Below, in pieces: positions 6,435 to 58,706 of a stretch of DNA of 58,706 nucleotides. The position numbers and the translations under genes were made by a program. The DNA is from Candidatus Eiseniibacteriota bacterium (GTDB taxonomy: Bacteria; Eisenbacteria; RBG-16-71-46; CAZAMP01): positions 1 through 58,706 of the forward strand of contig CBDCYW010000025.1 of assembly GCA_965224245.1 (NCBI GenBank), written 5' to 3'. Below the pieces are notes generated by a model. That model made no database searches. It was given only the letters and a program-made list of their open reading frames with translations, and was not told the origin of the DNA. Position 1 is the stretch's first letter, and the number at the start of each line of letters is the position of its first letter.

Positions 6435-6450
6435 GCGGAGTGGTCCACAG

Positions 6451-26991: not shown

Positions 26992-27008
26992 CGATACAGG
27001 GAGATACC

Positions 27009-43687: not shown

Positions 43688-44549
43688 AGATCTCCCTCCA
43701 CTTCTGCTTCGCTGACCACTCCCGCTTGGGATCGGCGATCTCGTGCTGGATCGCCTCGCAAGCCACGTTGTAGCAGCGTTTCGCCTTGTACTGGAACTGT
43801 CCCTTGCCTCCGTAGACCCACTGGCCACTTCCTGGCGCTTTCCAGAACTCCTGTTCGGTGTTCTGAGCGGCGATGTGCTCGAAGAAGTCGCGGCACATGA
43901 AGTCGTAGTAAAGGTACGACTTGTCTCGGTGCTCCCAGTCGATGATGAACTGGTAGGCTAGCGTGTCGATGAGAAGACCACCGATCGGCACGGCCCAATT
44001 GCTCCTCCAGGCTCGCATCATTCGGCACAGCGGAATCAGGTTGCCATTGCAGGCGTTGTTTCTCGTTCGGATGGCTTCGATCTCTGGTTTGGGGTTCGTC
44101 GTCTTCCAGCTTCCTCCTCCATTGGAGTCGGGATATGTGTAGCTGTCATCCTTGTTGACGAATGCAGGGACAAGCTCGAACGTGATGCCGTCGTCGAAGG
44201 GAATCAGAATGACCTGACCGTCAGCCCCGATGTTCGAGACCGAGTACGTCTTCTTTACGGAGTTGCGCACTGCCTGCAGGAGTGCGGATTGCCCGTTGCC
44301 GTTGTACTGGTCGTACCGCTGATAAACAGAGTATGGCAACTGGAAGATCAGGTCCACGTCGCTGGTTCCATGGATCGCCGTGTTCCGTCCGTAAGAACCG
44401 ACGTATAAGCTATGGGACGTTTCCGAAGTTGTGCTCCAGAAATCCGTGTTCAGGCGCTTCGTGATGGCCTTGCATCGTCGAGAAATAGAATCGCCATTCT
44501 TGACGTTGATGTTGTTGCAGAATACCCTGAACCAATCGGCGAGCCCCAT
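43665..44549 (-). CDS. SMODS/cGAS-DncV-like nucleotidyltransferase (CD-NTase)
   Basis: VGSYGRNTAI..TSDVDL, DGQV, FELVPAF, W..TNP, W..IFG. Confidence 0.9.
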   Translation of the reverse strand: MGLADWFRVFCNNINVKNGDSISRRCKAITKRLNTDFWSTTSETSHSLYVGSYGRNTAIHGTSDVDLIFQLPYSVYQRYDQYNGNGQSALLQAVRNSVKKTYSVSNIGADGQVILIPFDDGITFELVPAFVNKDDSYTYPDSNGGGSWKTTNPKPEIEAIRTRNNACNGNLIPLCRMMRAWRSNWAVPIGGLLIDTLAYQFIIDWEHRDKSYLYYDFMCRDFFEHIAAQNTEQEFWKAPGSGQWVYGGKGQFQYKAKRCYNVACEAIQHEIADPKREWSAKQKWREIFGTSYPA

Positions 44550-44605
44550 CGCGTCTCCTTCACTCGCCCGACTTCTTCAATGTCTGCCAGCTCGCGAGCC
44601 AACTA

Positions 44606-45103
44606 CTACTTCTCTCTCGTCGTTGATCCAGCCTGCTGCGCGATCTGATACAGTTTCATAAAGACGAGCTCGGCCAGGAGTTGTCCGTGAAGCTGCTCAA
44701 CGACACGCTTGTGGTAGTCGAGAACGATGGTGCGGATCACCTGCACGAGCCCCTCCGGGTCATCGGTGACGCTATCAGGGACACTGACTTCCCAGTTCGT
44801 GACGGCCTTTGCGATCTCTTCTCGATCGAGCGCTCGACTGAGCATCGGACCGATTTCTTCTTTCGCCATCGCGACGAGTTCTGGCCGTGTCTCTTCGATG
44901 ATGCCGCAGAGGTGTGACAACGCTTCGGACCCCGGAAGCCCAACGATTTCGTCAACGCGCGTCCTAAGGCCTTCAGCCGTGTCTTGAGCAAGCCTACGCT
45001 CGAACGCGGCGGCCGCTATCTGCGACCAGTTAAGCGAGTCCCCGGCGACCTCCATGCGCGCTTTCAGTTCGTCGGGTATGCTGATATTCATCCGCGCTGC
45101 CAT
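44606..45103 (-). CDS. Ribbon-helix-helix (Arc/CopG-like) N-terminal domain protein
   Basis: MAARMNISIPDELKARM...NWSQIA...F; palindrome overlapping the start codon. Confidence 0.65.
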   Translation of the reverse strand: MAARMNISIPDELKARMEVAGDSLNWSQIAAAAFERRLAQDTAEGLRTRVDEIVGLPGSEALSHLCGIIEETRPELVAMAKEEIGPMLSRALDREEIAKAVTNWEVSVPDSVTDDPEGLVQVIRTIVLDYHKRVVEQLHGQLLAELVFMKLYQIAQQAGSTTREK

Positions 45104-45186
45104 GCGCATATCATTGCGCATGAATATACACATCGCAAGGTGAATCGTAGTTACCAGCCCCTTGGCCCAGGCGCCTGCCTAGCTAT

Positions 45187-45218
45187 AGATGACCTACTTT
45201 GCAAAAAGTAGGTCATCT
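45187..45218. promoter_or_regulatory. Perfect palindromic site, candidate recombination/binding site of the adjacent tyrosine recombinase
   Basis: AGATGACCTACT-TTGCAAAA-AGTAGGTCATCT; extra AGGTCATC half-sites near 45264 and 45293; TTGACA at 45225. Confidence 0.65.
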
Positions 45219-45259
45219 GACCCCTTGACAGCGCCCACCAGCGTGCTAGAAATAGACGT

Positions 45260-45889
45260 ATGAGGTCATCTATGACCCGAAAAACACAAGACAGGTCATC
45301 CGGACCGAAACGGCAGCTCAAGGCATCCCAGTTCTCCCTGAAACCGGGCGAACTGCGGAAGCTCATCTACGCAGCCGAGAGCCCTCGTGACCGCTGCCTG
45401 ATCCGGACCTTGGCCGAGACCGGGATCCGCCGAGCCGAGCTCGCCGCCCTGGACGTCCGCGACGTCGACCTCGAAGTCCGGCGGTTGACGATCCGATCCG
45501 GCAAGGGCGGCAAGGAGCGCGTCGTGCCGATCACCCAGGAACTCGCGTCGGACCTGCGGTTCCTGATCGGCCGGAAACAGACCGGACCGATCTTCGTGTC
45601 TCTCCAGAAGGGGCCGCTTCAGATCCGGCAAATCAATCGGGTCGTGCGCGCCCTCGGTGAAGCGGCCGGGGTCAAGAACCCCAACCCGGCCTCCGGTGGG
45701 GCCGTCACCTGCCATCTCTTCCGGCACTCGTTCGCGAGGCTGTGGAAGCAGCGCGGCGGGGACATCGAGAGCCTCTCGCACATCCTCGGGCACTCGTCGT
45801 CCGCCACCACAGTCGACCTCTACGGCACGCAGTCGATCGACGACGTGCACGCCAACTACGAACGGATCATGGAGGACTCACCGTCGTAG
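45260..45889 (+). CDS. Tyrosine recombinase, catalytic domain only (resolvase-like)
   Basis: TGIRRAEL, GKGGKER, HLFRHS, LGHSS..T...Y: full R-K-HxxR-H-Y set. Confidence 0.92.
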   Translation: MRSSMTRKTQDRSSGPKRQLKASQFSLKPGELRKLIYAAESPRDRCLIRTLAETGIRRAELAALDVRDVDLEVRRLTIRSGKGGKERVVPITQELASDLRFLIGRKQTGPIFVSLQKGPLQIRQINRVVRALGEAAGVKNPNPASGGAVTCHLFRHSFARLWKQRGGDIESLSHILGHSSSATTVDLYGTQSIDDVHANYERIMEDSPS

Positions 45890-45929
45890 GCCGCTATCCG
45901 CCCTTGACTAATCAGCTAACCCAATCCCC

Positions 45930-46901
45930 ATGCGTCAATGCAAACCCGCCCGCCGGTCACCACTCGCGCGCGACAGCCGAGGCCTTGAAGACCCCCATCT
46001 CAAGCCGAGTCACCGGCTCATCCTCGAGCTTCTCTACCACTACCGGTACGCCACCGCCGAGATCTTGGGCATCGCCTACGAAGCCGAGCGTGGCCGCGGG
46101 CAAAAGAAGGTCCGGAACGAACTCTCTACCCTCTTTCACTCGGGCCTTGTGGAGCGGACGTTCTTTCCTACAGGCCCGGCCGGCCACGGCTCGGAACAGT
46201 ACGTCTACACGCTGACCACGCACGGTGCTCGCGCCCTCCTCGACCCTGAGACGTTCACGGAGGTGCGGACTCGGGTCTACAACCGCTCGCGTGAGAAATC
46301 GGTGGCCACAATCCCCCACCGGATCGCGATCTCCACTCTGCAGCTCATCCTCGACCATGGAGAGCCCGGGCCCGCTCTCGTGGACTTCACCTCGGATCAG
46401 GAGGATCCGAGCGCGCGTATCCGCGTAAGACTCGACGGTCGCTTCATGACGTTTCAGCCAGATGCCACTGCCGTTCTCGAGTGGCCGAATGGCAAACGAA
46501 GTGCGTTCTTCTTTGAGATCGAGCGTACGCACAAGAACCGCGCTCGGACAGACCGTCGCTTTCGAGCCTACCAGTCCTACCTCGTCGAGCATCTTCAGGG
46601 GATGCGGGAGCGCCTCGATGTCCACGGTGCGGTTGCCGTGTTCGTTGGCGACACGAGCAAGCGCGCTAGCCGGCTTCAACGCATTGCTCGTCAAGCGCTC
46701 GGCGACCTCAGTCGACGCCGAAGGCCACTCCTGTACTTCTGGCACATGGAGACGTGGTATCGCAGCAACGTGGTCCAGGACCCGCGCGATCCAGACAGAG
46801 TCGCGCGCCGTCAAAGCCTCGCGCACCCTCGCGACGTGCTGGCTGGAAGCTCAGTACTGACCCTCGAAGCGAAGGAGAGACCGCTGTTTATGGCCACCTA
46901 A
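45930..46901 (+). CDS. Replication-relaxation (Replic_Relax/MOBC-like) protein
   Basis: N-terminal wHTH, YTLT..GA, PHRIAI, PDA...FFEIER. True start uncertain. Confidence 0.75.
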   Translation: MRQCKPARRSPLARDSRGLEDPHLKPSHRLILELLYHYRYATAEILGIAYEAERGRGQKKVRNELSTLFHSGLVERTFFPTGPAGHGSEQYVYTLTTHGARALLDPETFTEVRTRVYNRSREKSVATIPHRIAISTLQLILDHGEPGPALVDFTSDQEDPSARIRVRLDGRFMTFQPDATAVLEWPNGKRSAFFFEIERTHKNRARTDRRFRAYQSYLVEHLQGMRERLDVHGAVAVFVGDTSKRASRLQRIARQALGDLSRRRRPLLYFWHMETWYRSNVVQDPRDPDRVARRQSLAHPRDVLAGSSVLTLEAKERPLFMAT

Positions 46902-47089
46902 CAATTTGTGATATATTAACTTACAAGACTGGCCGCCCAGCCCCGATACGGCGCTGACAACCGCCCGGTGGCTCCGCCAGGTTTCAGGTGAAGGCTCCAC
47001 TGAGCCTGGCCGGGTAGCGGATGGCCTTTACTCCGCGGCCCGGGCGGCCAGTCGTTCAAAACCACGTTGAGCAGAGATCCCTGGTCGCC

Positions 47090-47809
47090 TCAGTCAGGTG
47101 AGTCATCAACTCGAATGTTGAGAAGCGCGGCCACCTCGCGAAGCGACTCCACTGTGGCGTCCGCTACATCCTCGTCGTCCCGCGGCTTCTGAAAACGCGC
47201 GAAGCCTTGCAGTATCCGAATTGTCTTCCATCCGAGCGCCTTCGCTGGCCTGATATCGTTGTCAACACGGTCGCCGATCATCACGGCCTCGCTCACCCGG
47301 CAGCCCGCTTTGTGCAACGCTAGGGTGAAGATCTCAGCGCTCGGTTTCTTTACACCAACGTCGCCCGACGTGATGCAAGCTGACATGAACTCCGACCACC
47401 CATTCTTGTCGAGCTCTTCGCGCGCAGTGTCAGAATTCGCCACGATCCCGAGGCGGTAGCGTCGATGCATTACTCTCAAGAGTGACGTTGCCCCCGGGTA
47501 CGGCTTCAGCACACTGCGCCGGTACGTCAGTTCATTCAGACGCGAACGAAGAGCCACGTCGTCCCCGGCTACCTTCGTTAGGACATCAGCCATGAACTTC
47601 GGAGCGTATCGAGTTGCCGCGTCGGCAAGCATCCTCTGCACGGATTGCTTGGATGAATCTCTTCTCTGTCCTCTTAGCACATCGCGGACTTGATCGACCC
47701 AGTCATCAATCGCGTCGCTGTGATCAACAAGCGTGTTCCCAAGATCGAAGAACACCCATCGAACACCTACGAAAGGATTCGCTGCTGCACTGCTTGGCTC
47801 CGATGACAC
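47090..47809 (-). CDS. HAD-family hydrolase
   Basis: FFDLGNTL, IVAN, KP, IGDRVDNDI. Confidence 0.9.
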   Translation of the reverse strand: MSSEPSSAAANPFVGVRWVFFDLGNTLVDHSDAIDDWVDQVRDVLRGQRRDSSKQSVQRMLADAATRYAPKFMADVLTKVAGDDVALRSRLNELTYRRSVLKPYPGATSLLRVMHRRYRLGIVANSDTAREELDKNGWSEFMSACITSGDVGVKKPSAEIFTLALHKAGCRVSEAVMIGDRVDNDIRPAKALGWKTIRILQGFARFQKPRDDEDVADATVESLREVAALLNIRVDDSPD

Positions 47810-47827
47810 GTTACTGCTCCCGCTTGT

Positions 47828-49042
47828 TTACGCTACCTCCGGCACGTCCCGATACTCTTCCGGCCGTTCGTCTCGCGGCACGAGTTGCACGCCCAGCGCG
47901 AGGTCGCAAATCAACGTATGGAAGAAACGGCCGCGTAGTGCTGCCCGAACTGCTGGCGCCCTCTTCGTGGTCGAAGCGACACCTATCGTGTGCGTTCCAT
48001 CACTCTCCCGCCACTCGCGCAGCCTCTTCGGGCTCACTGTCAGCCCGATCTTGTCAGCGAGCTCCTCGAGCACGAGATTCCCGCCCCCATCAATCCCATG
48101 CCAATTCACCACCCCCACGACACCGGCCTGCTGCAGCGTTTTATTTGCGTCGTGATATGTCGCAAGCTCTAGGGGCTTGTAGATGAGCTCTGGTTCGGCC
48201 TCGAGCGCCTTACGACCCTTCGTACTGCTGTAGTACTGGTATGCGCCGACCAAGCGCACGAACGCCGACACTTCCTCATGTGGCTCAGCCTGCCCGGACT
48301 CTGGCTCCTTGTACGTGCGCCGGCTGATGACTGAGATCGTGGCGGCGGGTGCTGGTGCTTCGTCGAAGATTGCTCGGATTTCTGGGCGGCTCCGAACGTC
48401 GGCCGTCGCACCACCCGCCGGGAGCCCAGGACAGACCACATAGACACGACGACCCGGAGAGTGGCCGAGTCTCGCGTGCAGGACTTGAAGAGCAACGCTC
48501 GCATCCGCCGTCTCAATGAGCCGCCAGGGCCCGCCAACGACAAGTGGGCGGAAGATCACGGGCGCGACAGATGGTCGGAAGTACTTCGCGAATTCAAGAA
48601 CGAGCCTTCCGCCACTCACAGCGACGTGGTCATTCTCCTGCAGTCCCAAGTCCCCGACGAAATCAGCTACCGCCAGCCCCACATACCTACGGATGAAATC
48701 CCGGTAGTCCGCACTGGCAACCAAATCGGAGTCCCTAGCTGCGCTCGGTACGATCCTGACCTCTTCGAGACCATGGCTTCTCCAGTGGGCGCGAATGCGT
48801 TGAGCCAACTCATGCTGCGGACCCGGACGTAAGGTCACGCTCGTCTCCACCATGCCTTGTCTCTTCGCGCCCTTGAGTAGATCGTGCGCTTTGGTCCGGG
48901 AAAGCCCCAGCTGCTTCGCGACCTTCGTGACGGATTCACCCTGAACAACGCATCTAGCGACGAGCTCGACTTGCAGCTCTTGCTCCGATCGTCTGACCCT
49001 TCGTCGAATCACATCTCCGTTCCCCTCTTGGACAATCGTCAC
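47828..49042 (-). CDS. SorC/DeoR-like sugar-binding transcriptional regulator (diverged)
   Basis: HTH SVTKVAKQLGLSRTKA..LL..A...G.V, VAVSGGR, K..AVRAALRG.....LICD. Confidence 0.8.
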   Translation of the reverse strand: MTIVQEGNGDVIRRRVRRSEQELQVELVARCVVQGESVTKVAKQLGLSRTKAHDLLKGAKRQGMVETSVTLRPGPQHELAQRIRAHWRSHGLEEVRIVPSAARDSDLVASADYRDFIRRYVGLAVADFVGDLGLQENDHVAVSGGRLVLEFAKYFRPSVAPVIFRPLVVGGPWRLIETADASVALQVLHARLGHSPGRRVYVVCPGLPAGGATADVRSRPEIRAIFDEAPAPAATISVISRRTYKEPESGQAEPHEEVSAFVRLVGAYQYYSSTKGRKALEAEPELIYKPLELATYHDANKTLQQAGVVGVVNWHGIDGGGNLVLEELADKIGLTVSPKRLREWRESDGTHTIGVASTTKRAPAVRAALRGRFFHTLICDLALGVQLVPRDERPEEYRDVPEVA

Positions 49043-49480
49043 TCTGACACCAGACGATTGTTCAGAATTTCGAACTCTGTATCGATTGCGAGTTCACAAA
49101 ACAGAACTTTTTTACTTTGAATCACTTGACCTGCCCGATATCTCAAACGAGAATATTAACATGATGCTTGGATCGCTTCCAAGCAGGTTCTCAACGTGAG
49201 CGGCACCGCCTACGGGCCCCGAGAACCCACTGCTGGCAAACTGAAGACCCCGACTGGTGCAAGCAGCCGGGGTGCTGGCGGGTGGCTTCGCCACGCTCGC
49301 GCGCGGTGTACCGCACAGAGCGTCGATAGGCCAGGAGCAGTGGCCCATCATGACGAAGCCGCGAATCCCACCAGCCCTTCCGTTGTCCCACAAAGATCCA
49401 TATCCGTCAATATTTCAACAACTTACGCCAATCTTGTGCCCCGGGCTCGCTCAGTCCGCGTGCGAGCAAAGGCACCTACC

Positions 49481-50032
49481 GTGATCCCCGAGCCGCCGAT
49501 CGCCCGGGGTGGCGCCGCTTCCGCCGCAATCGAGCCATCGCCTCACCCACCCCCTAACCCGCAAGTTGGGTTACGCGATCTCGCGGTCATTCAAGGCTGG
49601 GCACGCTATCTGGCGCGCGGTGACAGCTGGGTGGAAGAGGTCTGCACCAACGCCGGCCTCTGTCATCGATTCGATCCGCAGAACCGTCCCGATCCGAGCA
49701 ATCCGCGTGCGCACGAAGCCCTGATGTTTGAAGTTTGGAAGGTCATGGACAACGCACGTCGCACACCTGTGCGTCGACGTTCCAAGACGATCCCACCGGA
49801 CAATCCGCTCCTTGACCCGAGCCGCTCACTCCGCTGCGCACTCTCCTTCGAAGCGGCTCTTCGATTCATCGATTCTTATCCCAATCCGCTCATCCGGTCG
49901 CTGGGTCTAAAGCGCCTCTTGGGACGCCGCGACCTCATCACTGGCACCGAACGTAAAGAGCTCTCTCGCAAGCGTGAACAACTAAGGCGAGACATCGCTG
50001 CCGCGATTCACCTCAGTTCGTGTCCCTTCTAG
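49481..50032 (+). CDS. Hypothetical protein, possibly a highly diverged ECF-sigma-like protein
   Basis: Weak region-2-like (ARYLARGDSWVEEVCTNA; VMDNARR) and region-4-like (TERKELSRKREQLRR) segments; start uncertain. Confidence 0.4.
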   Translation: MIPEPPIARGGAASAAIEPSPHPPPNPQVGLRDLAVIQGWARYLARGDSWVEEVCTNAGLCHRFDPQNRPDPSNPRAHEALMFEVWKVMDNARRTPVRRRSKTIPPDNPLLDPSRSLRCALSFEAALRFIDSYPNPLIRSLGLKRLLGRRDLITGTERKELSRKREQLRRDIAAAIHLSSCPF

Positions 50033-50155
50033 GTTGAGAGCGAGCTGAACGAACACTGTCAGTAACGCTTTCTCGTCGCGCGGTCCCGAACCAGAACATC
50101 TACATGGTCGGGGTTGCCAACTCCACGGCGCTCTCCACAACGAAAGGAGTCTGTA

Positions 50156-50341
50156 ATGAAAGACGCGAAGCGTCTTCGTGACGCCGTCGTCAGAAACGAC
50201 CGTGAGGTCGAGGTCACCCCCGATGGCACGGTGCTCTTTCCGGACGAAGCACCCGCCAGCGATGACAAGCCTGAGCGTGACGCACCGCCGAAGGCGACCA
50301 AGCGAAAGGCGACGAAGCTCTCGGACCATGTATTCGGCTAG
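50156..50341 (+). CDS. 61-aa peptide ending ...KLSDHVFG; candidate conjugated modifier/precursor
   Basis: Strong AAGGAG RBS, C-terminal Gly, directly upstream of E2 and JAB-E1. Confidence 0.7.
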   Translation: MKDAKRLRDAVVRNDREVEVTPDGTVLFPDEAPASDDKPERDAPPKATKRKATKLSDHVFG

Positions 50342-50407
50342 GACCCACCCAGGAGGCAGAGATGGTGGCCGGGCAGCCTCTGCAGGCTCGGCCGCCACTG
50401 AACGCAC

Positions 50408-50785
50408 ATGTGGTACGAGGAGAACCGATGGCGCATGCGTCTCGTAGCGGAACAGGAGGTGATGCGAGATCGGTTTCCTGCCTTCCGCCTCGTGCGCGCC
50501 TCGAACGGCCAGCTCCGGTGGAGCGGAACTCTCTCACCAGTTCGTGGAGTCACATTCCGTGTGTCTCTTCTCTACCCGAGTACATATCCGTACGCAGCGC
50601 CGGTATTCCGCGTTGACGCGCCTTGCCTTAAACGAGGTGCTCCCCACCGGTTCGCAAACGGAAGTCTCTGCGTTCACAAGAATCGTTGGGACCCAGCTAC
50701 CGGTACTGCGGCGAGCTGCGTACCGCTCCTATCCGCCTGGCTGCTCGCTTACGTAGAGTGGTGCCGAACCGGGGAGGTCTTCTGA
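50408..50785 (+). CDS. Prokaryotic E2 (UBC-fold) protein
   Basis: W.G.L, YPSTYPYAAP, PHRFANGSLC (active-site Cys), W.PA: matches the UBC pattern FP..YP..PP...HPN...G.IC...W.P. Confidence 0.85.
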   Translation: MWYEENRWRMRLVAEQEVMRDRFPAFRLVRASNGQLRWSGTLSPVRGVTFRVSLLYPSTYPYAAPVFRVDAPCLKRGAPHRFANGSLCVHKNRWDPATGTAASCVPLLSAWLLAYVEWCRTGEVF

Positions 50786-52398
50786 TGCCAACCGCCTTGA
50801 TGATCACCGAGATCGTCCTACGGGCGATCAAGGCTGAATGCCTGAGGCACCCAACGGTTGAGACTGGCGGCGTCTTGCTCGGAAACCGTGTCGGCACCGA
50901 CTATGTTGTTCCAGCAGTGATTCCACCGGGTCCGAGATCCCGCCGCGCACGCACCCTCTTCTCCCCAGACACGGACTTCCAGCAACCGATCCTGGACTTC
51001 GCGCACGAGTACTTCAACGGTCTCAACTACAAGGGAGAATGGCACCGACATCCTGGCCAGAACGACTATCCGAGCGCAAAAGACCTCAGTACGGCACGGG
51101 AGATCCTCTCCAGCCCCGAGTGGGACATCTCGGAGGCCGTCTTCCCCATCGCAATCGTGGACGACGGTGAGGTTCGGATCCGTGCGTACGAGATCACCCG
51201 GGACGATCCCCACTTCAGAGAGATCCCGCTATCTGTTCTGCCGGCCAGTGATCCCCGACTCACGGCAGCCCTCGGTCTCCAGCCTTCCGAGGCCACCGGT
51301 ACCCTCTTGACCACTGCGCAGCTCGTGCGCGATGCCAGCGTGAGAGCGACGGCGACCGACGTCTACGGACTCGCGCGACGGGACGAGCACCTTCTTCAGC
51401 TTCTCTCCCTCCACTCGGACTACTCGGGGTCCCTCCAAGCAGTCGGTCGCCTTGCCACTGGCAAGAGCACCGACGACGTCGGCATACCGCTGGTCGCGGG
51501 AGACTCGCACACATCGTTCCTGGCTCCCGACACGCTCCCCACCCCAACCAACATCGAGGTCATCGATACCGGCGCTGAAATGGCGGCCCGCCGCATCGGT
51601 CTCGTGGAGGAGCACCAGGTCGCCTCCAAGCGTGTCGCCGTGTTCGGGGTTGGAAGTCTCGGCTCCGGCCTAGCACTACTCCTGGCGCAGGCAGGCGTTG
51701 GCCACTTCGACGTCTACGACTGCGGTCGTCTCGATGCCGCAAATCTGAGTCGTCACGCGTGTGATCTGTTCGATCTAGGCAGATCGAAAGCGCTCGCCGT
51801 TTCCGAACTCCTCAGACGCCGTACGGCCCAGGCTCAGGGACACGATGTCGATCTCAGCACCATCGATGACCTCGAGTCTCTCGTCGACCCATCCGACCTC
51901 TTGATCGCAACGACCGACTCGCCCGAGGTTCAGTTCCGACTCAACGAGGCATCCGTGAAGACCGGCACCCCGGGGATCTTCGTCGGCGCGTATGAACAAG
52001 CAACCGCCGGGGAGGTCATCGTCGTTCGGCCCGGCGGACCATGCTTCTTCTGCTCAGTCGGTTTCCGCGCCGATATCGGCCCCGATCTTACGCCGAAGGA
52101 GAGGCGGCAAGCCTATGCCGACGCTAACAGCCGCCAGCTGAATGCGGAGCCCGGTCTAGGCACCGACATCAGCTATCTCTCTTCCGTGGCTGCGTCGTTC
52201 GCACTCGCAATCCTCGACCCGACCGGTAGACGCGACGTCCTGACGGAACCCAACCGCCAATTCACATTGGTTCATGGCGGAAGTCGCCCCTCCGGTCAGC
52301 ACGCTGATCTGTTTGATAAGCCGTTTGACTTGGTTTCCGCCCGCGTTGTTCGAAAGACACCTTGTGAGATCTGCGGCTTCCAATCCGAGGGGAAGTAG
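50785..52398 (+). CDS. JAB peptidase - ThiF/E1 fusion
   Basis: ETGGVLLG...WHRHP.....PS..D (JAMM); GVGSLGS, NLSRH, PCFFC/PCEIC. TGATG coupling to E2. Confidence 0.9.
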   Translation: MPTALMITEIVLRAIKAECLRHPTVETGGVLLGNRVGTDYVVPAVIPPGPRSRRARTLFSPDTDFQQPILDFAHEYFNGLNYKGEWHRHPGQNDYPSAKDLSTAREILSSPEWDISEAVFPIAIVDDGEVRIRAYEITRDDPHFREIPLSVLPASDPRLTAALGLQPSEATGTLLTTAQLVRDASVRATATDVYGLARRDEHLLQLLSLHSDYSGSLQAVGRLATGKSTDDVGIPLVAGDSHTSFLAPDTLPTPTNIEVIDTGAEMAARRIGLVEEHQVASKRVAVFGVGSLGSGLALLLAQAGVGHFDVYDCGRLDAANLSRHACDLFDLGRSKALAVSELLRRRTAQAQGHDVDLSTIDDLESLVDPSDLLIATTDSPEVQFRLNEASVKTGTPGIFVGAYEQATAGEVIVVRPGGPCFFCSVGFRADIGPDLTPKERRQAYADANSRQLNAEPGLGTDISYLSSVAASFALAILDPTGRRDVLTEPNRQFTLVHGGSRPSGQHADLFDKPFDLVSARVVRKTPCEICGFQSEGK

Positions 52399-52405
52399 GA
52401 GCCCA

Positions 52406-53239
52406 ATGGCCGCATCCGACTGGCTTGCCGATGACGAGGGGAACCTCACGCCCGAGGCGGCGCGAGCTGTCGAGCGACTGGGCGCCCGTGCGATTGATCA
52501 GCCGCCGCCGGTGGCCCAGGGTTGGCGTCCGTCTCCCCGGACGATTCTTCTCACTCTTGTCGGGTTCACGGCTTTGAATCTGTTGATCGCGCTCGTTCCG
52601 AACGAGCGCGAACGCGAGACCCATAGCATCTTACCGGTCACTACCCCAGAGCCGCCCGCGCGGCCGACTACGTCACGTGCGTCTTCCCGACCGGAGCCAG
52701 GGCTGGCGGCCTCCGAATCGCACCGTCGCACTCCCCCCTCCCCTGCTCTCCCTCAACGATCACGAAGCGCCCTCACTTCGGCAGAACGACCAACCACTCA
52801 CGCATCGACAGCACAAAACGGTGTCGTGACTGCGTCCATGCCCGGGCGGGCGGGTGAGATCTTCGGAAGTCTTGTCCGGCTGCGCACACGACCCAGTCTG
52901 CGCGCGCGGATCCAGCAGACGCTTGCTCCCCGGACCACAGTCCGAGTCCTGGATCAACAAGATGGGTGGTGCAAGCTGCAGCTCCCTGGAGGGCGAACTG
53001 GCTGGACCTTCGGAGCGTATGTGCGTGGGCCGGGCCACTTCGGTCTCGGGCCTGCAGTCCTCACAAAGACGCTCGTCGCGAGCACGACTCGGCTGACATC
53101 AGGAACCAAGGTGCTCGTAGAGCGCCGAGCCGGTCCGGGCAAGGTCCAACTGCGGCTACCGGACGGGACACGGCTAATCGCACCGGACAACAGTCTTCGC
53201 CTCGTGGACGGCGACGGGAACGGATATGGGCACCAATAG
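52406..53239 (+). CDS. Single-pass membrane protein with Pro-rich linker and bacterial SH3 domain
   Basis: One TM segment; VRLRTRPS...VRVLDQQDGWCKL...GRTGW..GAYV. Confidence 0.8.
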   Translation: MAASDWLADDEGNLTPEAARAVERLGARAIDQPPPVAQGWRPSPRTILLTLVGFTALNLLIALVPNERERETHSILPVTTPEPPARPTTSRASSRPEPGLAASESHRRTPPSPALPQRSRSALTSAERPTTHASTAQNGVVTASMPGRAGEIFGSLVRLRTRPSLRARIQQTLAPRTTVRVLDQQDGWCKLQLPGGRTGWTFGAYVRGPGHFGLGPAVLTKTLVASTTRLTSGTKVLVERRAGPGKVQLRLPDGTRLIAPDNSLRLVDGDGNGYGHQ

Positions 53240-53939
53240 GACCGCCATCGGCCTACTCATCCTCGCCATGACCGCGCTGGCGCCGTGCGCATTGGTTCGT
53301 GAGCCCTCCCCGCAACCGCAGCTAGTGACGACCGCTACACGCTCCTACACGACTCCGTGGGTTGGGCTACCTGTCAGTCTTCCACCACTGACGCCGCCGA
53401 TACCGAATGCGACTGTTCCAACGGACCCGCAAGCGCTGCCAGGCGCGTTGCGCGAGTACCGTGGGGGTGTTCATGAGGGCGTTGACTTCCGTTGCGCTCC
53501 AGGCACACCCGTTCGCGCTGCGCTCGCTGGGTGGGTGCTGAGCGTCGAGGACCGACAAGACCTACCCCTTGAGATTCGGCGCGAGCTCCTCGAGCAGTGC
53601 TCGGCGCTGGGTCGAACGCCACAGCTGGTCCTCGACATACTCCACGGAAGGCGACTCGTGCTCTACCACGGCATGTTCGATGGAAACCTCCTCACGACCA
53701 GCTACTCCCACGCGGCGGAGATCCGCACCGATCTCGTCCCGGGTGCCTGGGTCGAACCCGGCGAGATCATTGCGTGGACCGGGGCATCAGGCACGAGTCA
53801 CGCCTACAAGGCCGACCATTGGTCCGAACTACACTTCGAACTCCGCATCAACGGTCTACCGGTAGGCCTCGGTCTGTCCAGCAACGAAGCCGGCGCGCTA
53901 TATCGATCCGCGCTCACAGATGAGGTGGTCGGGCAATGA
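53226..53939 (+). CDS. M23 family peptidase (exported)
   Basis: HEGVDF, GTPVRA, YSH, G.SG, ELHFE (first His of HxH replaced). Confidence 0.85.
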   Translation: MGTNRTAIGLLILAMTALAPCALVREPSPQPQLVTTATRSYTTPWVGLPVSLPPLTPPIPNATVPTDPQALPGALREYRGGVHEGVDFRCAPGTPVRAALAGWVLSVEDRQDLPLEIRRELLEQCSALGRTPQLVLDILHGRRLVLYHGMFDGNLLTTSYSHAAEIRTDLVPGAWVEPGEIIAWTGASGTSHAYKADHWSELHFELRINGLPVGLGLSSNEAGALYRSALTDEVVGQ

Positions 53940-54008
53940 TTGGGTTGTCTTCTGGACCTACGAATTCCAGCGCAAGAGCCCGCCGCAACGCAACCACCGG
54001 CGGTCACG

Positions 54009-54185
54009 ATGTCTGATCTGATCCCTCCCTTCATCGTCCTGTCGGCGATTCTCGTGATGGCGCTCCGACTGGGAAACCAACACCTCTCAATCCCAAGCCG
54101 TGCGTGGAGAAGGCCCGCCATCGCCCTGACCCGTCTTCTCGCGGCCGGCCTCGGCCGCATCTTCTCTCGGCCACGCAGGTACTAG
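54009..54185 (+). CDS. Small membrane protein
   Basis: Hydrophobic LIPPFIVLSAILVMAL; fills the operon gap. Confidence 0.4.
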   Translation: MSDLIPPFIVLSAILVMALRLGNQHLSIPSRAWRRPAIALTRLLAAGLGRIFSRPRRY

Positions 54186-54204
54186 TGAGGAGGGGGCTCC
54201 GGAC

Positions 54205-54732
54205 ATGGCTTACGTAGTACCTCCTCGCAGCCGCGTCATCGATAGCTGGAGTACGACTGTCCGCTTCGCAGGTGATCGCGCGGATCAATTCACATCCGAC
54301 CTGTACGGTGATCTTGAAGACGCCGGCGTTCGCTACTTTCGACTCCAAGTGCGCCTGACCCGCGCCGGCGGGCTTCTGAGTGCCGTGCGGCGCGAGCACA
54401 TGGTTGTGACGCTCCCGGAGTTTCCGAGGCTCTACCAGCTGGTTTCGGTCCGCCCGATCGGGCGGCACCTCAACGTGTACCGGATCACCGCAGATAAGAC
54501 GAGTCGAACCGATGACCTCCTGGCGCGTCTCGCCGGAACGCTTCGCCGCAGCCGTCCGTTGACGCCTTACGAGTTTCTTCGCGAGCAGGATGTCCGAGCG
54601 TGGGTCTCGGTCGTCCATGGCACGATCGTCGCGCGACTCGCGCCCCTCCTCGAGGAACTGGGCGAGGACGCCACGTATCTCACCCGCGTCCGGGCTGTGC
54701 GGTTTGAACCGGTCGACGTGCGAGCAGAGTGA
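54205..54732 (+). CDS. Hypothetical protein
   Basis: GAGGAGG RBS; co-oriented within the operon. Confidence 0.65.
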   Translation: MAYVVPPRSRVIDSWSTTVRFAGDRADQFTSDLYGDLEDAGVRYFRLQVRLTRAGGLLSAVRREHMVVTLPEFPRLYQLVSVRPIGRHLNVYRITADKTSRTDDLLARLAGTLRRSRPLTPYEFLREQDVRAWVSVVHGTIVARLAPLLEELGEDATYLTRVRAVRFEPVDVRAE

Positions 54733-54753
54733 GCCAACGATGATGAGGGACCA

Positions 54754-56361
54754 ATGGCAGATGGCATGAGCTGGGTCATACTGCTGGCCCTCGCCCCCCT
54801 ACTTTGGAGAGTCACTGACTGGTTGCGTGAGCGGCGCTACCTCGTACACCGAGGCCGGCATCTGCAACTCAGTCGCCATCGGCGCCGTTTCGAGTCCGTA
54901 ACCCAGGAGATCACGAACCATCTGGGCTACCTTATCCCCTCAGTGATGAGCAGGAACGAACTCGAGGCTCTCGTTCGGGCAGGCATGAGCCCCGAGGCAC
55001 TCCGCGAAGAGCTGGCGCAGCGATGTGGCGAGGCGAATGGAGTAATCCTCGGTGACACGCCAATCGGTCCAACCTCCCTCCCTGTCCATCTTCCGGAAGA
55101 GTTTCGGAAACGACATCTCTACTGCATCGGGAAGTCCGGATACGGCAAAACGACGACGCTGCAGCGTCTCATCGTCCAGGATCTGCATGCAGGGGCCGGG
55201 CTCGGCGTCGTTGCTCCCGAGTACGAGATGGTCGACCAGGAGATTCTCCCCTTCATACCGGAGGACCGGTACGACGACGTGATCGTCGTGAATCCAGCGG
55301 ACCCCCACTGCCCACCGCTCAACCCGCTCCACCTCCACCCTGGCGAAGACCCGGATCGTGCGATCGACGAGACGTACGTTGTCCTCCAACGCGCATTCGG
55401 AGACGAGTCCTCCGCTGCGGCACCTCGAATGCAGACATTGCTTCGGAACGCGCTGTACGCCCTCATGCCTATACCAGGAACGACGCTCTGCGACATTCCA
55501 CGCCTGCTGGATAGAGCAGATGGTTCCTTCCGCGAATGGGTCAGCGAGCGATGCAACGATGAGCAGGCTCGCCATTTCTGGCGATCCTCCTATTCTCGGT
55601 TCCCCCGCGATTCTCATCTATCCCTGATGAACCGTCTGACTCCCCTCCTCCGGCCTGCCGTGGTCAGACGTGTACTTTGCCGGCCGGAGGGATCGCTCAA
55701 CATGCGATCCGCCATGGACCAGGGCAAAGTGGTCCTCTTCTCGTTGAGTGACGGCATCCTTGGCCAGACGAATGCTGAGATTCTCGGACAGCTAGTCGTT
55801 GCTCGCATCCAACTGGCCGCCATGTCCCGCGCGGACCAACCCAAGGAGGATCGCCGCCCGTTCACGCTCTACTGCGACGAGTTCCAGGCGTGGCTCGGCG
55901 TCACGGGCACGAGCTACGAACGCATCCTCTCGCGTGCCCGCAAGTACAACCTGCGACTCGTCCTTGCCCACCAGCAAACAGGTCAGATTGGCCAATCCAT
56001 GTTGCGAGAGATACTGGGAAACGTGTCGACGACCCTGCTGTTCTACCTGTCGGCTTCTGACGCTAGGCGCCTCGGCAAGGAGATGGTCGGCGAGGTCGAC
56101 GGCAGGTCCGAAACGTTGGATCCACAGGAGCTCCTCTCGCTCCGCATCGGAGAAGCATGGTGCAAGATCGGCCGGACGGTGCTGTACGTGCGGACGCGCC
56201 CTCCCCTGGAAGGAGGCTCCCCAGCCAGCCGGCAGGAGGTCCTGCGCCGCTCACGCCAGCTCTACGGCGGCATGCCGAGCGCCCGAGCGGTCGGACCGGA
56301 CCGCACTTCATCCGACGACACAGCGTGGCTCAGTGACGTGAAAACCGGCACGGTGCTCTGA
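54754..56361 (+). CDS. Type IV coupling protein-like ATPase (VirD4/TraD/HerA-like)
   Basis: N-terminal TM, RHLYCIGKSGYGKTT, LYCDEFQ, ARKY.L.L.LAHQ...Q. Confidence 0.88.
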   Translation: MADGMSWVILLALAPLLWRVTDWLRERRYLVHRGRHLQLSRHRRRFESVTQEITNHLGYLIPSVMSRNELEALVRAGMSPEALREELAQRCGEANGVILGDTPIGPTSLPVHLPEEFRKRHLYCIGKSGYGKTTTLQRLIVQDLHAGAGLGVVAPEYEMVDQEILPFIPEDRYDDVIVVNPADPHCPPLNPLHLHPGEDPDRAIDETYVVLQRAFGDESSAAAPRMQTLLRNALYALMPIPGTTLCDIPRLLDRADGSFREWVSERCNDEQARHFWRSSYSRFPRDSHLSLMNRLTPLLRPAVVRRVLCRPEGSLNMRSAMDQGKVVLFSLSDGILGQTNAEILGQLVVARIQLAAMSRADQPKEDRRPFTLYCDEFQAWLGVTGTSYERILSRARKYNLRLVLAHQQTGQIGQSMLREILGNVSTTLLFYLSASDARRLGKEMVGEVDGRSETLDPQELLSLRIGEAWCKIGRTVLYVRTRPPLEGGSPASRQEVLRRSRQLYGGMPSARAVGPDRTSSDDTAWLSDVKTGTVL

Positions 56362-57239
56362 TGCATAGGCTTACCGATCGCGATCATGAGGTGCTTCTCG
56401 CACTCTGGCGATTCCAGTACCTCTCCGTCGCGCAGATTCAGCGGCTTCTCTTCCCGTCGACTCAGACCGTCAACCGGCGACTCCGGATCCTCTCAAGCGA
56501 AGATTACGTGGAGATCTTCTCTGTGCCTGGTCTACCGGACCGGCTCGTGCGGCTCCGCTCCGCAGGTGCGGCGGTCGTCGCCGGAAGCCTCGAGCTTCCA
56601 CTCGCCGCGACCGGGTGGACAAGAGACCGGGGGCGCCCCAAGGACCACTGGTTCGCCCGCCACTTTCTCCGGATCAGCGACTTCCGCATCGCCCTTCTGC
56701 AGGCATGCCGCTGCGCCCCGGTTCGGCTGCTAGGGTTCATCCCCGAGTACGTCGGCCGAAAGCCGCGCAGCGGAGCCTACCGCAAGTACATACAGGACGT
56801 TGTTGCCGACATCGCTCAGCCGGGGAGCAAGATCTCACACACTCCGGATGGGGTGTTCGCGCTGTCGCGTGCCGAGCGAGCGGGGCTGTTCTTCCTCGAG
56901 GTCGATCGTGGAACCGAGGTGATCTCGCATCCGGCGCGGGGCGTTGGAAAGCTGGTCAGGTTCTACCTGAACGCCATCGCCTCGAGAGCCTTCGAACGCT
57001 ATCAAGAGGATTTCGGAGTGACCTTCGAAGGCTTCCGGATCCTGATCGTCACAAGCACGTTGGCTCGGCTCCGCAACATCCAGGATGCTGCCGCGGCGAT
57101 CTCCTTCGAGCCTTCGAATGCCAAATCGTTGATCTGGATCACAACCGTTGAGGCCACAGAGTGCGCCAACGTGCTGACGGACACGATCTGGCGAACCCTG
57201 GACCCCGAAGATCGGGGGGGCTATGCGATCGTTGCCTGA
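56361..57239 (+). CDS. Replication-relaxation (Replic_Relax/MOBC-like) relaxase
   Basis: LTDRD..L..L...L...Q, RRL..L, H.L, PDG.F...FFLEVDRGTE; TGATG coupling to the coupling-protein gene. Confidence 0.88.
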   Translation: MHRLTDRDHEVLLALWRFQYLSVAQIQRLLFPSTQTVNRRLRILSSEDYVEIFSVPGLPDRLVRLRSAGAAVVAGSLELPLAATGWTRDRGRPKDHWFARHFLRISDFRIALLQACRCAPVRLLGFIPEYVGRKPRSGAYRKYIQDVVADIAQPGSKISHTPDGVFALSRAERAGLFFLEVDRGTEVISHPARGVGKLVRFYLNAIASRAFERYQEDFGVTFEGFRILIVTSTLARLRNIQDAAAAISFEPSNAKSLIWITTVEATECANVLTDTIWRTLDPEDRGGYAIVA

Positions 57240-57493
57240 TCAGCGTGTAATCGAGGTGTATTCGCAGGAGCTCGGAACTGCATCTCGGCTGTATTGGCGA
57301 GAGTACACCGGCGGTCCCGTAACTGCTGATGGTGACATGGATTCAGTCTCCTATTCGCGTCCAACTATCGCGTGTTCCGTACTCTCGTTCGTCAGATCTC
57401 GTTGTGACCCACCTGGGGCGCTAGCTCCTGCCGGCCTACGTCAGTGTGGTCGAGCGAGCCCGAACTTGCCCTCTCGACAAGGGAGCTGACACC

Positions 57494-57694
57494 ATGGCCA
57501 TTGAGCTGGATCGGACAAGGATGCTTCTGACGTCTCGCGAGGCCGCCCGGGCCCTGGCGATCTCACCGCGGAAGCTGTGGGAGCTGACGAAGTGCGGTGC
57601 CATCCCCTGCATCCGAATAGGGCGCACCGTTCGATACGATCCTCACGACCTGCGTGACTACATCGCGCGGCAGAAGACGAAACGGAGCGCGTGA
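57494..57694 (+). CDS. Excisionase (HTH_17)
   Basis: LLTSREAARALAISPRKLW...IP.IRIGR.VRY...DL..YI. Confidence 0.88.
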   Translation: MAIELDRTRMLLTSREAARALAISPRKLWELTKCGAIPCIRIGRTVRYDPHDLRDYIARQKTKRSA

Positions 57695-57696
57695 AC

Positions 57697-58706
57697 ATGG
57701 CCACGATCTTCAAGCGCGAAGGGCGGAGCCCCTACTATATCGTCCAGTGGTTCGACCACAGCGGGCGGCGCCGGCAGAAGTCGAGTCGAACCACCGATAG
57801 GCGGGCTGCTCAGCGGCTGGCCGACAAGCTCGAAAGCGAAGCCATGCTTCGCCGCGAAGGCGTCATCGACGTCCAGGCGGAGCGACTCGCGCAACAAGAT
57901 CGGACCCCGATCCTCGATCACGTCGACACATATCTGAACGAGTGCTCGAACCGCCAGGACAACCCGCGTTTCATCGACGACAAGCGCCGCCATCTGACGC
58001 AGGCGATCGACGACGTCGGTGCGTCGCGGCTGTCCGACCTGACCACGGATCGTGTTCGAGCCTCTCTCGCCCGCTACCACAAGACGAAGGTCTCGGCTCG
58101 CAGCGTCAACATTCGGAGGAACACGCTCGTCGCGTTCCTCAACTGGTGCGTCAAGACCGAGCGAGCAACGAAGAACCCGTTGTCCGCCATCCCGCAGCTG
58201 CGCGAGAAGGCCGACCGGCGCCGGCAACGCCGATCCCTCACTGCCGACGAGGTCAAGCGCCTGCTCGCGGTCGCCGAGGAACGAGGCCGCAAGGCCTGGT
58301 ACCTGGCAGCGCTCCTCGCGGGCATGCGCCGCGGGGACCTGATCCAGTTGTGCTGGGGTGATCTCGACTTTGAAGCCGGCACGATCACAATTCGGAACGG
58401 CAAGAGCCAACGGCTCGGGAAACCCGAAGACGTCATCCCGCTACCACCGGCGCTTGCTCAGGAGTTCCTGCGGATCCGCCCCGATCGTGCCGCAGCCACC
58501 GACCGCGTCTTCCCGACCGCGGTAACCCACAACACGCGGCGAAAGGACTTCACCCGGGCCGAGATCCCGCTCGAGGACGAGAACGGCCGTGTCGTCGATC
58601 TACACGCCCTCAGGACGACGCTCGGAACCTGGTTGGCCATTGAGGGCGTCCCGGCGCAGCACGCGCAGCGAATCCTCCGGCACGAGAACCTGAAGACGAC
58701 GATGCA
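57697..58706 (+). CDS. Tyrosine integrase, 3' end outside window
   Basis: Absent from the ORF track. MATIFKREGRSPYYIVQWFD... AGMRRGDL ... DLHALRTT ... LRHENLKTTM. Confidence 0.93.
   Translation, partial: MATIFKREGRSPYYIVQWFDHSGRRRQKSSRTTDRRAAQRLADKLESEAMLRREGVIDVQAERLAQQDRTPILDHVDTYLNECSNRQDNPRFIDDKRRHLTQAIDDVGASRLSDLTTDRVRASLARYHKTKVSARSVNIRRNTLVAFLNWCVKTERATKNPLSAIPQLREKADRRRQRRSLTADEVKRLLAVAEERGRKAWYLAALLAGMRRGDLIQLCWGDLDFEAGTITIRNGKSQRLGKPEDVIPLPPALAQEFLRIRPDRAAATDRVFPTAVTHNTRRKDFTRAEIPLEDENGRVVDLHALRTTLGTWLAIEGVPAQHAQRILRHENLKTTM

Follow-up and report, generated by a model that had tools for sequence, protein, structure and literature searches.

A predicted peptide-tagging gene module linked to a coupling ATPase and Replic_Relax backbone on a putative integrative mobilizable element of Candidatus Eiseniibacteriota

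The final part of a 58,706-nucleotide stretch of DNA from a Candidatus Eiseniibacteriota soil bacterium (referred to here as the window; the entire contig CBDCYW010000025.1 of assembly GCA_965224245.1, or contig C26 of genome G000) contains a dense run of genes in which a module resembling ubiquitin-type conjugation systems lies directly upstream of genes for DNA mobilization and integration. The backbone comprises a TrwB/VirD4-like coupling ATPase, a Replic_Relax (MOBC-type) putative relaxase, an excisionase, and a tyrosine integrase. The accessory module 5' of this backbone comprises a tag peptide, an E2-like conjugating enzyme, a JAB domain, an E1-like adenylating enzyme, a membrane adaptor that usually carries an SH3 domain, and often an M23 metallopeptidase-like protein. 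The architecture and linkage of these genes are supported with high confidence, and the run very probably represents the right-hand part of an element of the integrative mobilizable type. The module would, with good probability, carry out tagging chemistry. Its role is more doubtful: we tentatively propose an element-borne conflict (defence-like) system that acts at the cell envelope and is not part of the transfer machine proper, and the account as a whole is as tentative as this proposal, its weakest part.

Linkage of the tagging module to the element backbone

Genome G000 (6.9 Mb, 27 contigs, 97% complete) is one of a small number of sources of this E1 family. Orthologues were collected from 30 loci, comprising the window, four loci on genome contigs identified with a 7-sequence E1 alignment, four more from a scan of the phylum, and 21 metagenome loci; two pairs (L038/L039 and L058/L059) are near-duplicates. 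The phylum scan covered 206 genomes, eight of which, including that of the window, encode an E1 matching at E ≤1e-70. The 102 other matches are housekeeping ThiF/MoeB proteins with E values of 1e-11 to 1e-19.

All 17 loci with at least approximately 2.5 kb of downstream sequence have an ATPase gene after the E1, as identified by tblastn and Pfam. The ATPase of L002 is a 351-residue open reading frame (ORF) corresponding to the C-terminal two thirds only, and those of L063 and L038 are cut by the contig end. Among the 14 loci with enough sequence beyond the ATPase, 13 have a Replic_Relax gene next; in the fourteenth, L037, it is a 134-residue fragment, and the E1 of this locus is also broken. 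Integrase genes are seen in eight loci (the window, L002, L003, L005, L056, L057, L059, and L067). None was found in L055, L065, and L066 with three integrase queries and no Pfam scan, or in L036 by Pfam. Of 12 module-bearing sources, 7 have a tRNA or tmRNA gene adjoining the integrase side, as do all four module-less sources scanned. The common order is peptide, E2, JAB, E1, adaptor, often M23, ATPase, Replic_Relax, sometimes a methylase or small ORFs, excisionase, and integrase.

Within the loci collected, no close E1-family homologue was found outside the ATPase-backbone context. A first-pass annotation of the window, made from the sequence, had placed the peptide, E2, and E1 genes at the head of a DNA-transfer and integration run; the linkage of tagging genes with coupling ATPase, Replic_Relax, and integrase in 17 of 17 loci is in line with this proposal, and the homologues are not mostly located in defence islands unlinked to transfer genes. 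A viral origin of the module was considered and rejected: viral contigs contain no E1 orthologue, giving only two matches to 52 residues of the Rossmann part, and PHROG matches are restricted to integrase, excisionase, lysin-like, and unknown ATPase families.

Organization of the gene run

Between 49.2 and 58.7 kb every credible ORF lies on the + strand, giving 12 genes in one co-oriented run (Table I). The order is a hypothetical ORF, the 61-residue peptide, E2, JAB-E1, the adaptor with transmembrane (TM) helix and SH3 domain (TM-SH3), M23, a small TM ORF, a 175-residue hypothetical protein, the ATPase, Replic_Relax, excisionase, and integrase, the last of which is interrupted by the contig end. 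The co-orientation and tight packing described at first pass are borne out by ORF coordinates and family scans. Intergenic distances, taken from the ORF coordinates, are between -14 and 123 nt, except for 254 nt between Replic_Relax and the excisionase, and four junctions overlap. The hypothetical ORF at the head is followed by the peptide gene after 123 nt, and the peptide by E2 after 66 nt. E2 and JAB-E1 share 1 nt (TGATG), and TM-SH3 begins 4 nt after JAB-E1 and overlaps the M23 gene by 14 nt. The small TM ORF follows M23 at 0 nt, with the 175-residue hypothetical 19 nt further on and the coupling ATPase 21 nt after that. The last two overlaps are between ATPase and Replic_Relax (1 nt) and between excisionase and integrase (4 nt).

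Table I. Genes of the co-oriented run at the right-hand end of the window
Feature	Position	Strand	Remarks
Hypothetical ORF, head of run	49196..50032	+	Start uncertain; in-frame GTG at 49481 is the alternative used in the first-pass annotation
61-aa tag peptide	50156..50341	+	GGAG before ATG; ends ...TKLSDHVFG-stop
E2-like conjugating enzyme, 125 aa	50408..50785	+	PADLOC E2 1.1e-16; P79, H80, C88
JAB (~residues 1-165) fused to E1-like adenylating enzyme (~165-537)	50785..52398	+	Prok-JAB 1.5e-9, ThiF 9.6e-25
Membrane adaptor (TM-SH3)	52403..53239	+	SH3_3 8.2e-12; one TM helix
Secreted M23 metallopeptidase-like protein	53226..53939	+	Peptidase_M23 7.5e-12
Small hydrophobic ORF	53940..54185	+	81 aa from TTG or 58 aa from ATG 54009
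Hypothetical backbone gene, 175 aa	54205..54732	+	No family match (Pfam, PADLOC, NCBIfam, PHROG)
Coupling-protein-like ATPase	54754..56361	+	TrwB_AAD_bind 2.5e-6; P-loop GKSGYGKTT; long N-terminal helix
Replic_Relax (MOBC-type) putative relaxase, N-terminal winged helix	56361..57239	+	PF13814 7.2e-14
Excisionase-type helix-turn-helix protein, 66 aa	57494..57694	+	TIGR01764 1.3e-6; phrog_66 3.6e-7
Tyrosine integrase, cut by contig end	57691..58706	+	Phage_integrase 4.9e-19; phrog_1 4.5e-47

Two gene assignments differ from those made at first pass. The excisionase is the ORF listed in Table I and not the 88-residue ORF at 57223-57489, and the most likely start of TM-SH3 is 52403 and not 52274. 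The hypothetical ORF at the head of the run, which is preceded by a sigma-70-like site at 49126-49154, has no match in Pfam, PADLOC, NCBIfam, or PHROG and no tblastn match in any related locus. The small hydrophobic ORF likewise has no family match and no tblastn match in related loci.

A scan for terminator-like sites returned 11, compared with 5.3 +/- 2.7 in shuffled sequences. The best-placed candidate is a GC hairpin at 54141-54158, which lies within the small hydrophobic ORF and has a poor T-run. It was rejected as a terminator between the modules, as the fold of 54120-54210 is no better than that of shuffles (z -0.07), leaving no convincing terminator to separate tagging genes from backbone.

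Backbone and mobility

The coupling ATPase scores 27.1 bits against TrwB_AAD_bind, for which the cut-off is 20.5. A model of the protein (pLDDT 85.3, pTM 0.81) was compared with solved structures using Foldseek, which highlights TrwB as the best match (E ~2e-13, TM by target 0.61-0.66), followed by HerA (6.7e-13) and then by SIR2/HerA, VirB4, and Cag-beta. The Replic_Relax protein is well above the PF13814 cut-off (52.7 against 25.3 bits), and this family is the MobC of CONJscan according to the available portion of PMC5357655. The excisionase scores 28.6 bits against TIGR01764, just under the cut-off of 28.8, and proteins with an HTH_17 domain occupy the same position in L002 and L003. Relatives of the coupling ATPase are present in 27 of the 206 genomes of the phylum, and Replic_Relax proteins in 30. 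The combination of a TrwB-like ATPase, a MobC relaxase, excisionase and integrase genes, and tRNA or tmRNA sites fits an integrative mobilizable element (IME).

No VirB4 or pilus family was detected in Pfam scans of window ORFs (13, 20, and, in a further scan of 30 proteins, 20 ORFs). The first-pass statement that the window lacks such genes is therefore correct, and for VirB4 family PF03135 it extends to the whole of genome G000 (0 matches); five other module-bearing hosts are likewise without a match. With the VirB4 families PF03135 and PF12846 nearly absent from the phylum, no helper system is in sight.

Repeats that might mark the ends of the element were also sought. The short matches at plausible places are of 11 nt in L005 (9273/16698, E 1.5) and of 12 nt in L059 (516/9927, E 0.19). 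Repeats within 44500-58706 of the window were rejected as element ends, being short and resembling chance matches. Joints in contigs of four DNA runs have sides of at most 22 letters and give no information on excision.

The module is accessory to the backbone

Ten loci (L040-L049) with ATPases 43-58% identical to that of the window provide a module-less comparison. None gives a tblastn match (E ≤1e-3) to the peptide, E2, JAB-E1, adaptor, or M23 protein; 6-10 kb of upstream sequence is available for six of these loci (L040-L045), while the 0-2.5 kb of L046-L049 is little informative. The phylum scan found no E1 orthologue anywhere in the genomes of these loci. ORFs 5' of the module-less ATPases are mostly nameless in Pfam, and a further scan of the unexplained ones gave nothing over the cut-off. 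A second backbone in the window's own genome (L080, on contig C11) is formed by a type-B ATPase and Replic_Relax, without a tagging module. Homologues of the 175-residue hypothetical protein, at 28-32% identity, occur only in module-less loci (L040, L041, and L049).

M23 and SH3 domains are found only beside tagging genes, which indicates that these cell-wall enzymes belong to the tagging module and not to the mobilization unit. The first-pass description of the run as a minimal MOBC-type mobilization unit with its own cell-wall enzymes hence holds in part. The unit itself agrees with PF13814 being MobC and with the compact VirD4-MobC-integrase class of IMEs in print (PMC5357655, as far as its available portion goes), whereas the cell-wall enzymes are restricted to loci with tagging genes and absent from the closest module-less backbones.

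Phylogenies of the ATPase and the E1 reveal that the two parts have not always travelled together. The ATPase tree (24 rows, after removal of partial sequences below 400 residues from L063, L002, and the upstream copy of L067) displays two deeply split clades with branches of 3.2 and 1.59. Module-bearing elements occur in both, and at least three changes (gains or losses) are needed to account for the presence of the module. The E1 tree has 18 rows; L066 was dropped because its high-scoring segment pair (HSP) is split, and L004, L037, L039, L054, L058, L060, L062, L064, and L068-L070 were left out as partial or duplicate sequences. In this tree the E1s of L057 and L038, which accompany clade-B ATPases, nest among E1s of clade-A backbones with SH-aLRT supports of 99 and 95. 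The midpoint roots serve only to draw the trees and imply no direction of transfer. Together, the two trees indicate that module and backbone have re-assorted, yet the same arrangement has been regained. The module is dispensable for the backbone, and accessory to it.

Tag peptide and conjugation enzymes

Peptide genes are located 5' of E2 in 17 of the 18 loci searched, with the exception of L067, where the patterns used found none; the gene in L003 is frameshifted. The 61-residue peptide of the window matches no family in Pfam, PADLOC, NCBIfam, or PHROG. An alignment of 16 sequences shows a variable, gap-rich middle and four invariant residues (G24, K54, F60, and G61), and the family ends in ...K(P/A)TKL.P(R/H)TFG, with a conserved C-terminal TFG. 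The FG pair is followed by no residue in the window, by 1-4 in most loci, by 9 in L005, and by 18 in L002. In L003 a domain of approximately 150 residues continues in frame after FG, which is a separate ORF in L002, L050, L057, and L058. Short tails after the conserved Gly are the pattern of ubiquitin-like precursors trimmed by a deubiquitinase (DUB), as reported for BilC: pre-processing of ubiquitin-like protein (Ubl) tails of ≤9 residues by this type of DUB is described for the Bil system in the available part of 10.1101/2023.09.26.559546.

Five relatives have a conserved ORF of approximately 125 residues between peptide and E2 (L002:4390-4767, L003:9090-9557, L050:516-953, L057:5970-6401, and L058:1620-2087). 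It has no counterpart in the window, where the corresponding gap is the 66 nt noted above, and reaches the cut-off of no Pfam family, the nearest being DUF3574 at 4.8e-4 in one copy.

A complex model of E1 residues 165-537 with the peptide obtained a score of 0.65, compared with 0.00 for the best of three controls. Of 157 solved complexes, 116 attain the mark that this score passes, as do 2 of 215 mismatched pairs; these counts apply only roughly here, since our own alignments were used. The runs agree in ≥97% of contacts, and the pLDDT of the partner is ≥62. Peptide residues 53-61 are modelled in contact with E1 residues 288, 290-293, and 376-378, in the adenylation site, and residues 15-27 pair with the E1 strand 515-523. 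The pass may partly reflect likeness to known complexes, since solved E1-Ubl and MccB-peptide structures exist. Even so qualified, the model supports predicted binding of the peptide to the E1 with the tail in the adenylation site.

The E1 keeps the nucleotide loop, the catalytic Asp, and two CxxC pairs, with residues G288, G290, G293, R323, and D378 invariant in 14 sequences. The closest solved structures are UBA5 (3e-12), Cap2, and MoeB. JAB and E1 share one ORF in the window and are separate ORFs in the relatives, with the exception of L066, where one HSP runs across both. The JAB domain has E26 and the stretch HRHPG...SAKD, in agreement with the JAB/JAMM metal-site motif. Among 5.8 billion clusters, a search returned 12 proteins with the E1 alone at E ≤2e-63, a single further one at 2e-32, and few distant relatives.

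The E2 matches Pfam UQ_con only weakly (E 0.0099, below the cut-off), and is better described by PADLOC E2 models (Table I); among solved structures it is closest to eukaryotic UBC E2s, at ~5e-4. Copies in related loci are 43-60% identical to it, and the P79, H80, and C88 residues of its PH...C motif are invariant in 16 sequences. The family is rare: 276 of 1.84 billion cluster representatives match at E ≤1e-3, 48 at 1e-10, and 4 at 1e-30. Domain fusions of the more distant E2 relatives were used as a proxy for wider synteny. A scan of 21 such proteins, seven of which had no match, identified fusions to TIR (P0064, P0086), SMODS (P0121), Mrr_cat with HATPase_c (P0149), and zinc ribbons.

Membrane adaptor and M23 protein

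Directly after the E1, all 21 loci that reach past this gene have an ORF with a conserved N-terminal motif, (W)L.DD.G.(L/I)RPE(V)AR, which is followed by a Pro-rich linker and a TM helix. In the window gene the motif takes the form WLADDEGNL.PE.AR and is placed on the cytoplasmic side. An alignment of 19 adaptors has L8 and G13 unchanged throughout and an SH3 domain in 17 of the sequences. The window copy has no lysine in the motif, which may be a docking site rather than a target of tagging.

M23 proteins occur in 13 loci in all; copies 43-60% identical are found in L036-L039, L052, L055-L057, and L063-L066, and the gene is missing from L002, L003, L005, L058/59, and L067. The window copy, which is over the Pfam cut-off, retains HEGVD. 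Its second motif reads SELHFE, giving ExH instead of HxH, and the same is true of seven relatives, while three distant relatives (L063, L065, and L066) keep HLHFE.

Proposed pathway and role

The module can be assembled into a hypothetical pathway. The JAB would trim the precursor tail to expose the C-terminal Gly, at which the window copy already ends. The E1 would then adenylate this Gly and the tag would be handed to the E2 cysteine, for final attachment to a target close to the inner membrane; the cytoplasmic motif of the adaptor may recruit the enzymes to this site. The SH3 domain and M23 protein would act on the cell wall. We consider tagging chemistry of this kind probable.

For its purpose, a role in conflict is slightly favoured over one in transfer, although we hold it with less than even confidence. 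PADLOC models of CBASS-type E2, E1-E2, and JAB proteins match the module, and the nearest NCBIfam model, 6A-MBL cap2_3, matches at 1.2e-33, below its cut-off. 6A-MBL is listed among jumbo-phage defence systems in the available portion of 10.1101/2025.09.30.679545. The distant E2 relatives fused to TIR, SMODS, and Mrr_cat, and the dispensability of the module for the backbone, point in the same direction.

A number of observations weigh against this account of element and module. The module is never seen away from the ATPase and Replic_Relax backbone, and its constant place and strand across two deep ATPase clades would be unusual in defence cargo that moves freely. The peptide, the adaptor, and M23 fall outside all PADLOC models, and the window M23 has the substituted ExH motif. 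A β-grasp fold of the tag is uncertain, only residues 15-27 and 53-61 being confidently placed in the model. That module and backbone probably share a transcript is read from gene spacing alone, a weak point. On the side of the element, the fold-search score of HerA nearly equals that of TrwB, and the type-B ATPases of relatives match only DUF87/HerA_C in Pfam. Repeats of ≥14 nt that could represent att sites were found in none of 12 loci by exact-word search (blastn-short in 9), the only matches being of 10-13 nt with E values of 0.08-5. No origin of transfer (oriT) was identified, no oriT model having been used, and the gap at 57236-57500 before the excisionase folds like shuffles (z 0.29). 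The right end of the element is missing from the window. In the phylum, VirB4 family PF03135 is found in one of 206 genomes (G116, with 6% contamination) and PF12846 (AAA_10) in none; other VirB4 families were not searched and binned genomes often lose plasmids, so this scarcity is no proof of absence.

The nearest competitor, which we regard as rather unlikely, is that tag conjugation at the membrane adaptor governs or assembles a path by which the element leaves or enters cells. The tag might steer wall remodelling by M23 and SH3 where the coupling ATPase is located, or it might mark the relaxase or the ATPase itself. The exclusive linkage to ATPase and Replic_Relax (17 of 17 loci) fits such a role, as does the position of the module, always directly 5' of the backbone on the same strand with tiny gaps, and the survival of the linkage through re-assortment between ATPase clades. 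Envelope proteins are a regular part of the module (TM adaptor in 21 of 21 loci, M23 in 13), and proteins of these kinds occur in Gram-positive mating systems. VirB4 is also almost absent from a phylum in which 27-30 of 206 genomes have the backbone. However, the closest backbones (L040, L041, and L049, with 52-58% ATPase identity) do without module, M23, and SH3; several module-bearing loci lack M23; no module protein has a family link to any known transfer protein; and characterised bacterial E1-E2-JAB operons all serve phage defence, according to the literature, including the available text of 10.1101/2023.09.26.559546. A more specific and less probable form, to which we give a small chance, makes tagging a working part of VirB4-independent movement or establishment of the element: conjugation of the tag at the adaptor would couple the TrwB/HerA-like translocase to SH3/M23 wall remodelling, or would mark the transferred nucleoprotein. 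If true, this would be the first ubiquitin-type conjugation pathway to serve horizontal gene transfer, with a linear peptide tag that is not of the β-grasp type.

It is improbable that the whole run is instead a multi-gene defence system beside an integrase, without DNA transfer, in which the effectors would be the HerA/T4CP-like ATPase and the Replic_Relax protein with its nuclease fold, regulated by the tagging genes. The fold search with the ATPase retrieves HerA and SIR2/HerA antiphage complexes (E 6.7e-13 to 1e-10), PADLOC mad8 matches the ATPase (1.1e-11) and mad1 the excisionase, other genes of defence type occur in the window (SMODS with SLATT_4, and DUF4007/PAPS_reduct), and searches with PF03135 and PF12846 found no helper type IV secretion system (T4SS) in the phylum. 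However, many genomes carry the ATPase-Replic_Relax-excisionase-integrase unit by itself, next to tRNA or tmRNA genes, which is the signature of an integrating element. TrwB is the top fold match of the ATPase, and the TrwB_AAD_bind and TraG-D_C families give matches; PF13814 counts as a MobC relaxase family, and IMEs with this compact order have been described (PMC5357655, available portion). Chance neighbourhood or an assembly artefact, with the JAB-E1 fusion a sequencing error, deserves next to no credence: the assembly does have 27 contigs and almost all relatives encode JAB and E1 separately, but 17 of 17 loci, drawn from several assemblies and metagenomes and with protein identities of 35-56%, show the same order, L066 likewise has JAB and E1 in one HSP, and a public-run contig of 11,274 bases is identical to 46401-57674, though it may derive from the source sample.

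Relation to known systems

The backbone resembles the streptococcal IME_Class_8, described as compact VirD4-MobC-integrase IMEs by Coluzzi et al. 2017 (PMC5357655). As far as the available portion of that source goes, the two share, with other IMEs, a coupling protein of the VirD4 kind, a PF13814/MobC relaxase, and recombination genes, and have no mating-pore genes of their own. They differ in the integrase, which is a tyrosine enzyme with an excisionase here and a serine integrase there. Part of the present family has, in addition, a second and deeply divergent ATPase of DUF87/HerA-like type. The upstream peptide-tagging module is a further difference, as is the host phylum, in which no helper T4SS was found with PF03135 and PF12846.

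The best named matches of the module are to Cap2/Cap3 of type II CBASS and to 6A-MBL, with which it shares E1- and E2-like domains and a JAB isopeptidase. Curated NCBIfam cut-offs are not reached (6A-MBL cap2_3, 116.6 against 320 bits; Cap3, 43.2 against 200 bits). In those systems E2 and E1 are fused, whereas here the E2 stands alone and the JAB is fused to the E1. The activated substrate would be a 61-residue peptide and not a CD-NTase, and the operon has neither a cyclase nor a metallo-β-lactamase effector.

The ubiquitin-like antiphage operons BilABCD (Bil) offer another parallel in organization, with separate tag, E2, JAB DUB, and E1, and tag precursors that have a short DUB-removed tail after the Gly (10.1101/2023.09.26.559546, available part). 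In contrast to Bil, the tag is far shorter than a β-grasp Ubl and, in the complex model, apparently binds through two linear stretches. Further differences are a single-domain E1 that most resembles UBA5/MoeB, the additional membrane adaptor and M23, and the occurrence of the module on only one kind of mobile element. No sequence match to Bil proteins was obtained among solved structures.

Conjugative elements that carry along an E1-like ThiF gene set have a precedent in print, the ParB-related, ThiF-related cassette (PRTRC), which is present on integrative conjugative elements (ICEs) and plasmids and has no assigned function in the available portions of 10.1101/2024.12.10.627669 and PMC3318190. 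No PRTRC model is among the NCBIfam matches (E ≤0.01) of 12 proteins. The operon has no ParB partner, the nearest ParB being 12 kb upstream. PRTRC carriers are large ICEs with a T4SS, in contrast to the VirB4-less element of 7-14 kb described here.

Other features of the window and related loci

Upstream of the run, window:45260-46901 (+) contains two genes, for a 209-residue tyrosine recombinase with a catalytic domain only and for a second Replic_Relax protein. The pair recurs at L005:10-1328 (-), with 56% and 45% identity, approximately 8 kb upstream of the module and in the opposite orientation; short recombinases are also present at the far end of L003 and L044. The pair may be the left end of the element or a separate tiny element. 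Between this pair and the module in L005, positions 1541-7059 carry dCTP-deaminase-like, thymidylate-kinase, 5-hmdU DNA kinase (5.8e-103), and Nmad2 (1.7e-68) genes, a gene set for thymidine hypermodification such as phages are known to carry. Downstream of the decayed element copy in L037, a 533-residue ORF (3085-4686) combines a Ser/Thr protein kinase domain (1.2e-44) with a Phage_integrase catalytic domain (2.7e-20).

Two further regions of the window contain genes of defence type. At 43064-44549 (-), an SMODS nucleotidyltransferase (7.3e-54) is followed by a SLATT_4 two-TM effector (3.1e-67), forming a CBASS-like pair. Located 6 kb upstream of the E1 and E2 genes on the opposite strand, and without a counterpart in any related locus, this pair was rejected as their partner. 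The region 21540-36544 (+) encodes an Aminotran_5 protein (cysteine desulfurase-like), DUF4007, a 1106-residue ORF, PAPS_reduct, AAA_16, a 517-residue ORF, and a 1768-residue protein with a C-terminal FtsK_SpoIIIE domain. It lies within a stretch of lower G+C (0.56-0.59), and is presumably a phosphorothioate (Ssp/Dnd-type) DNA-modification and restriction island.

Elsewhere in the genome, contig C12:1-13778 (L079) has a canonical VirD4-like fragment at its end (TrwB_AAD_bind 3e-23, TraG-D_C 6.5e-23), beside type I restriction-modification genes. In contigs of four DNA runs, summed depth over the E2 and excisionase regions of the window (50383-50873 and 57257-57747) is 3-5 times that of the surroundings, and two sequence variants meet at 58584-58706. 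This suggests that several related elements are present in the same community, which may explain the contig break in the integrase.

Significance

Bacterial E1-E2-JAB pathways have so far been assigned to phage defence, acting on cyclases or on β-grasp tags. Both the chemistry and the carrier described here have counterparts of a known kind; new are the tag, the additional envelope components, and the exclusive pairing of module and element. In the literature searched, neither a module made up of peptide, E2, JAB, E1, adaptor, and M23 nor a link between it and MOBC elements was found described; supplements, which may hold tables, lay outside the search. The novelty of the family lies in a linear peptide of approximately 55-65 residues as the presumed tag, joined by a membrane adaptor and a wall peptidase, and in its occurrence on one kind of small integrating element only, where it has been kept through exchange between two very different ATPase backbones. 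The family thereby provides a test case for the use that a ubiquitin-like tag may have to a mobile element, and for how coupling-protein/MOBC elements may move in a phylum nearly without VirB4-type secretion genes.

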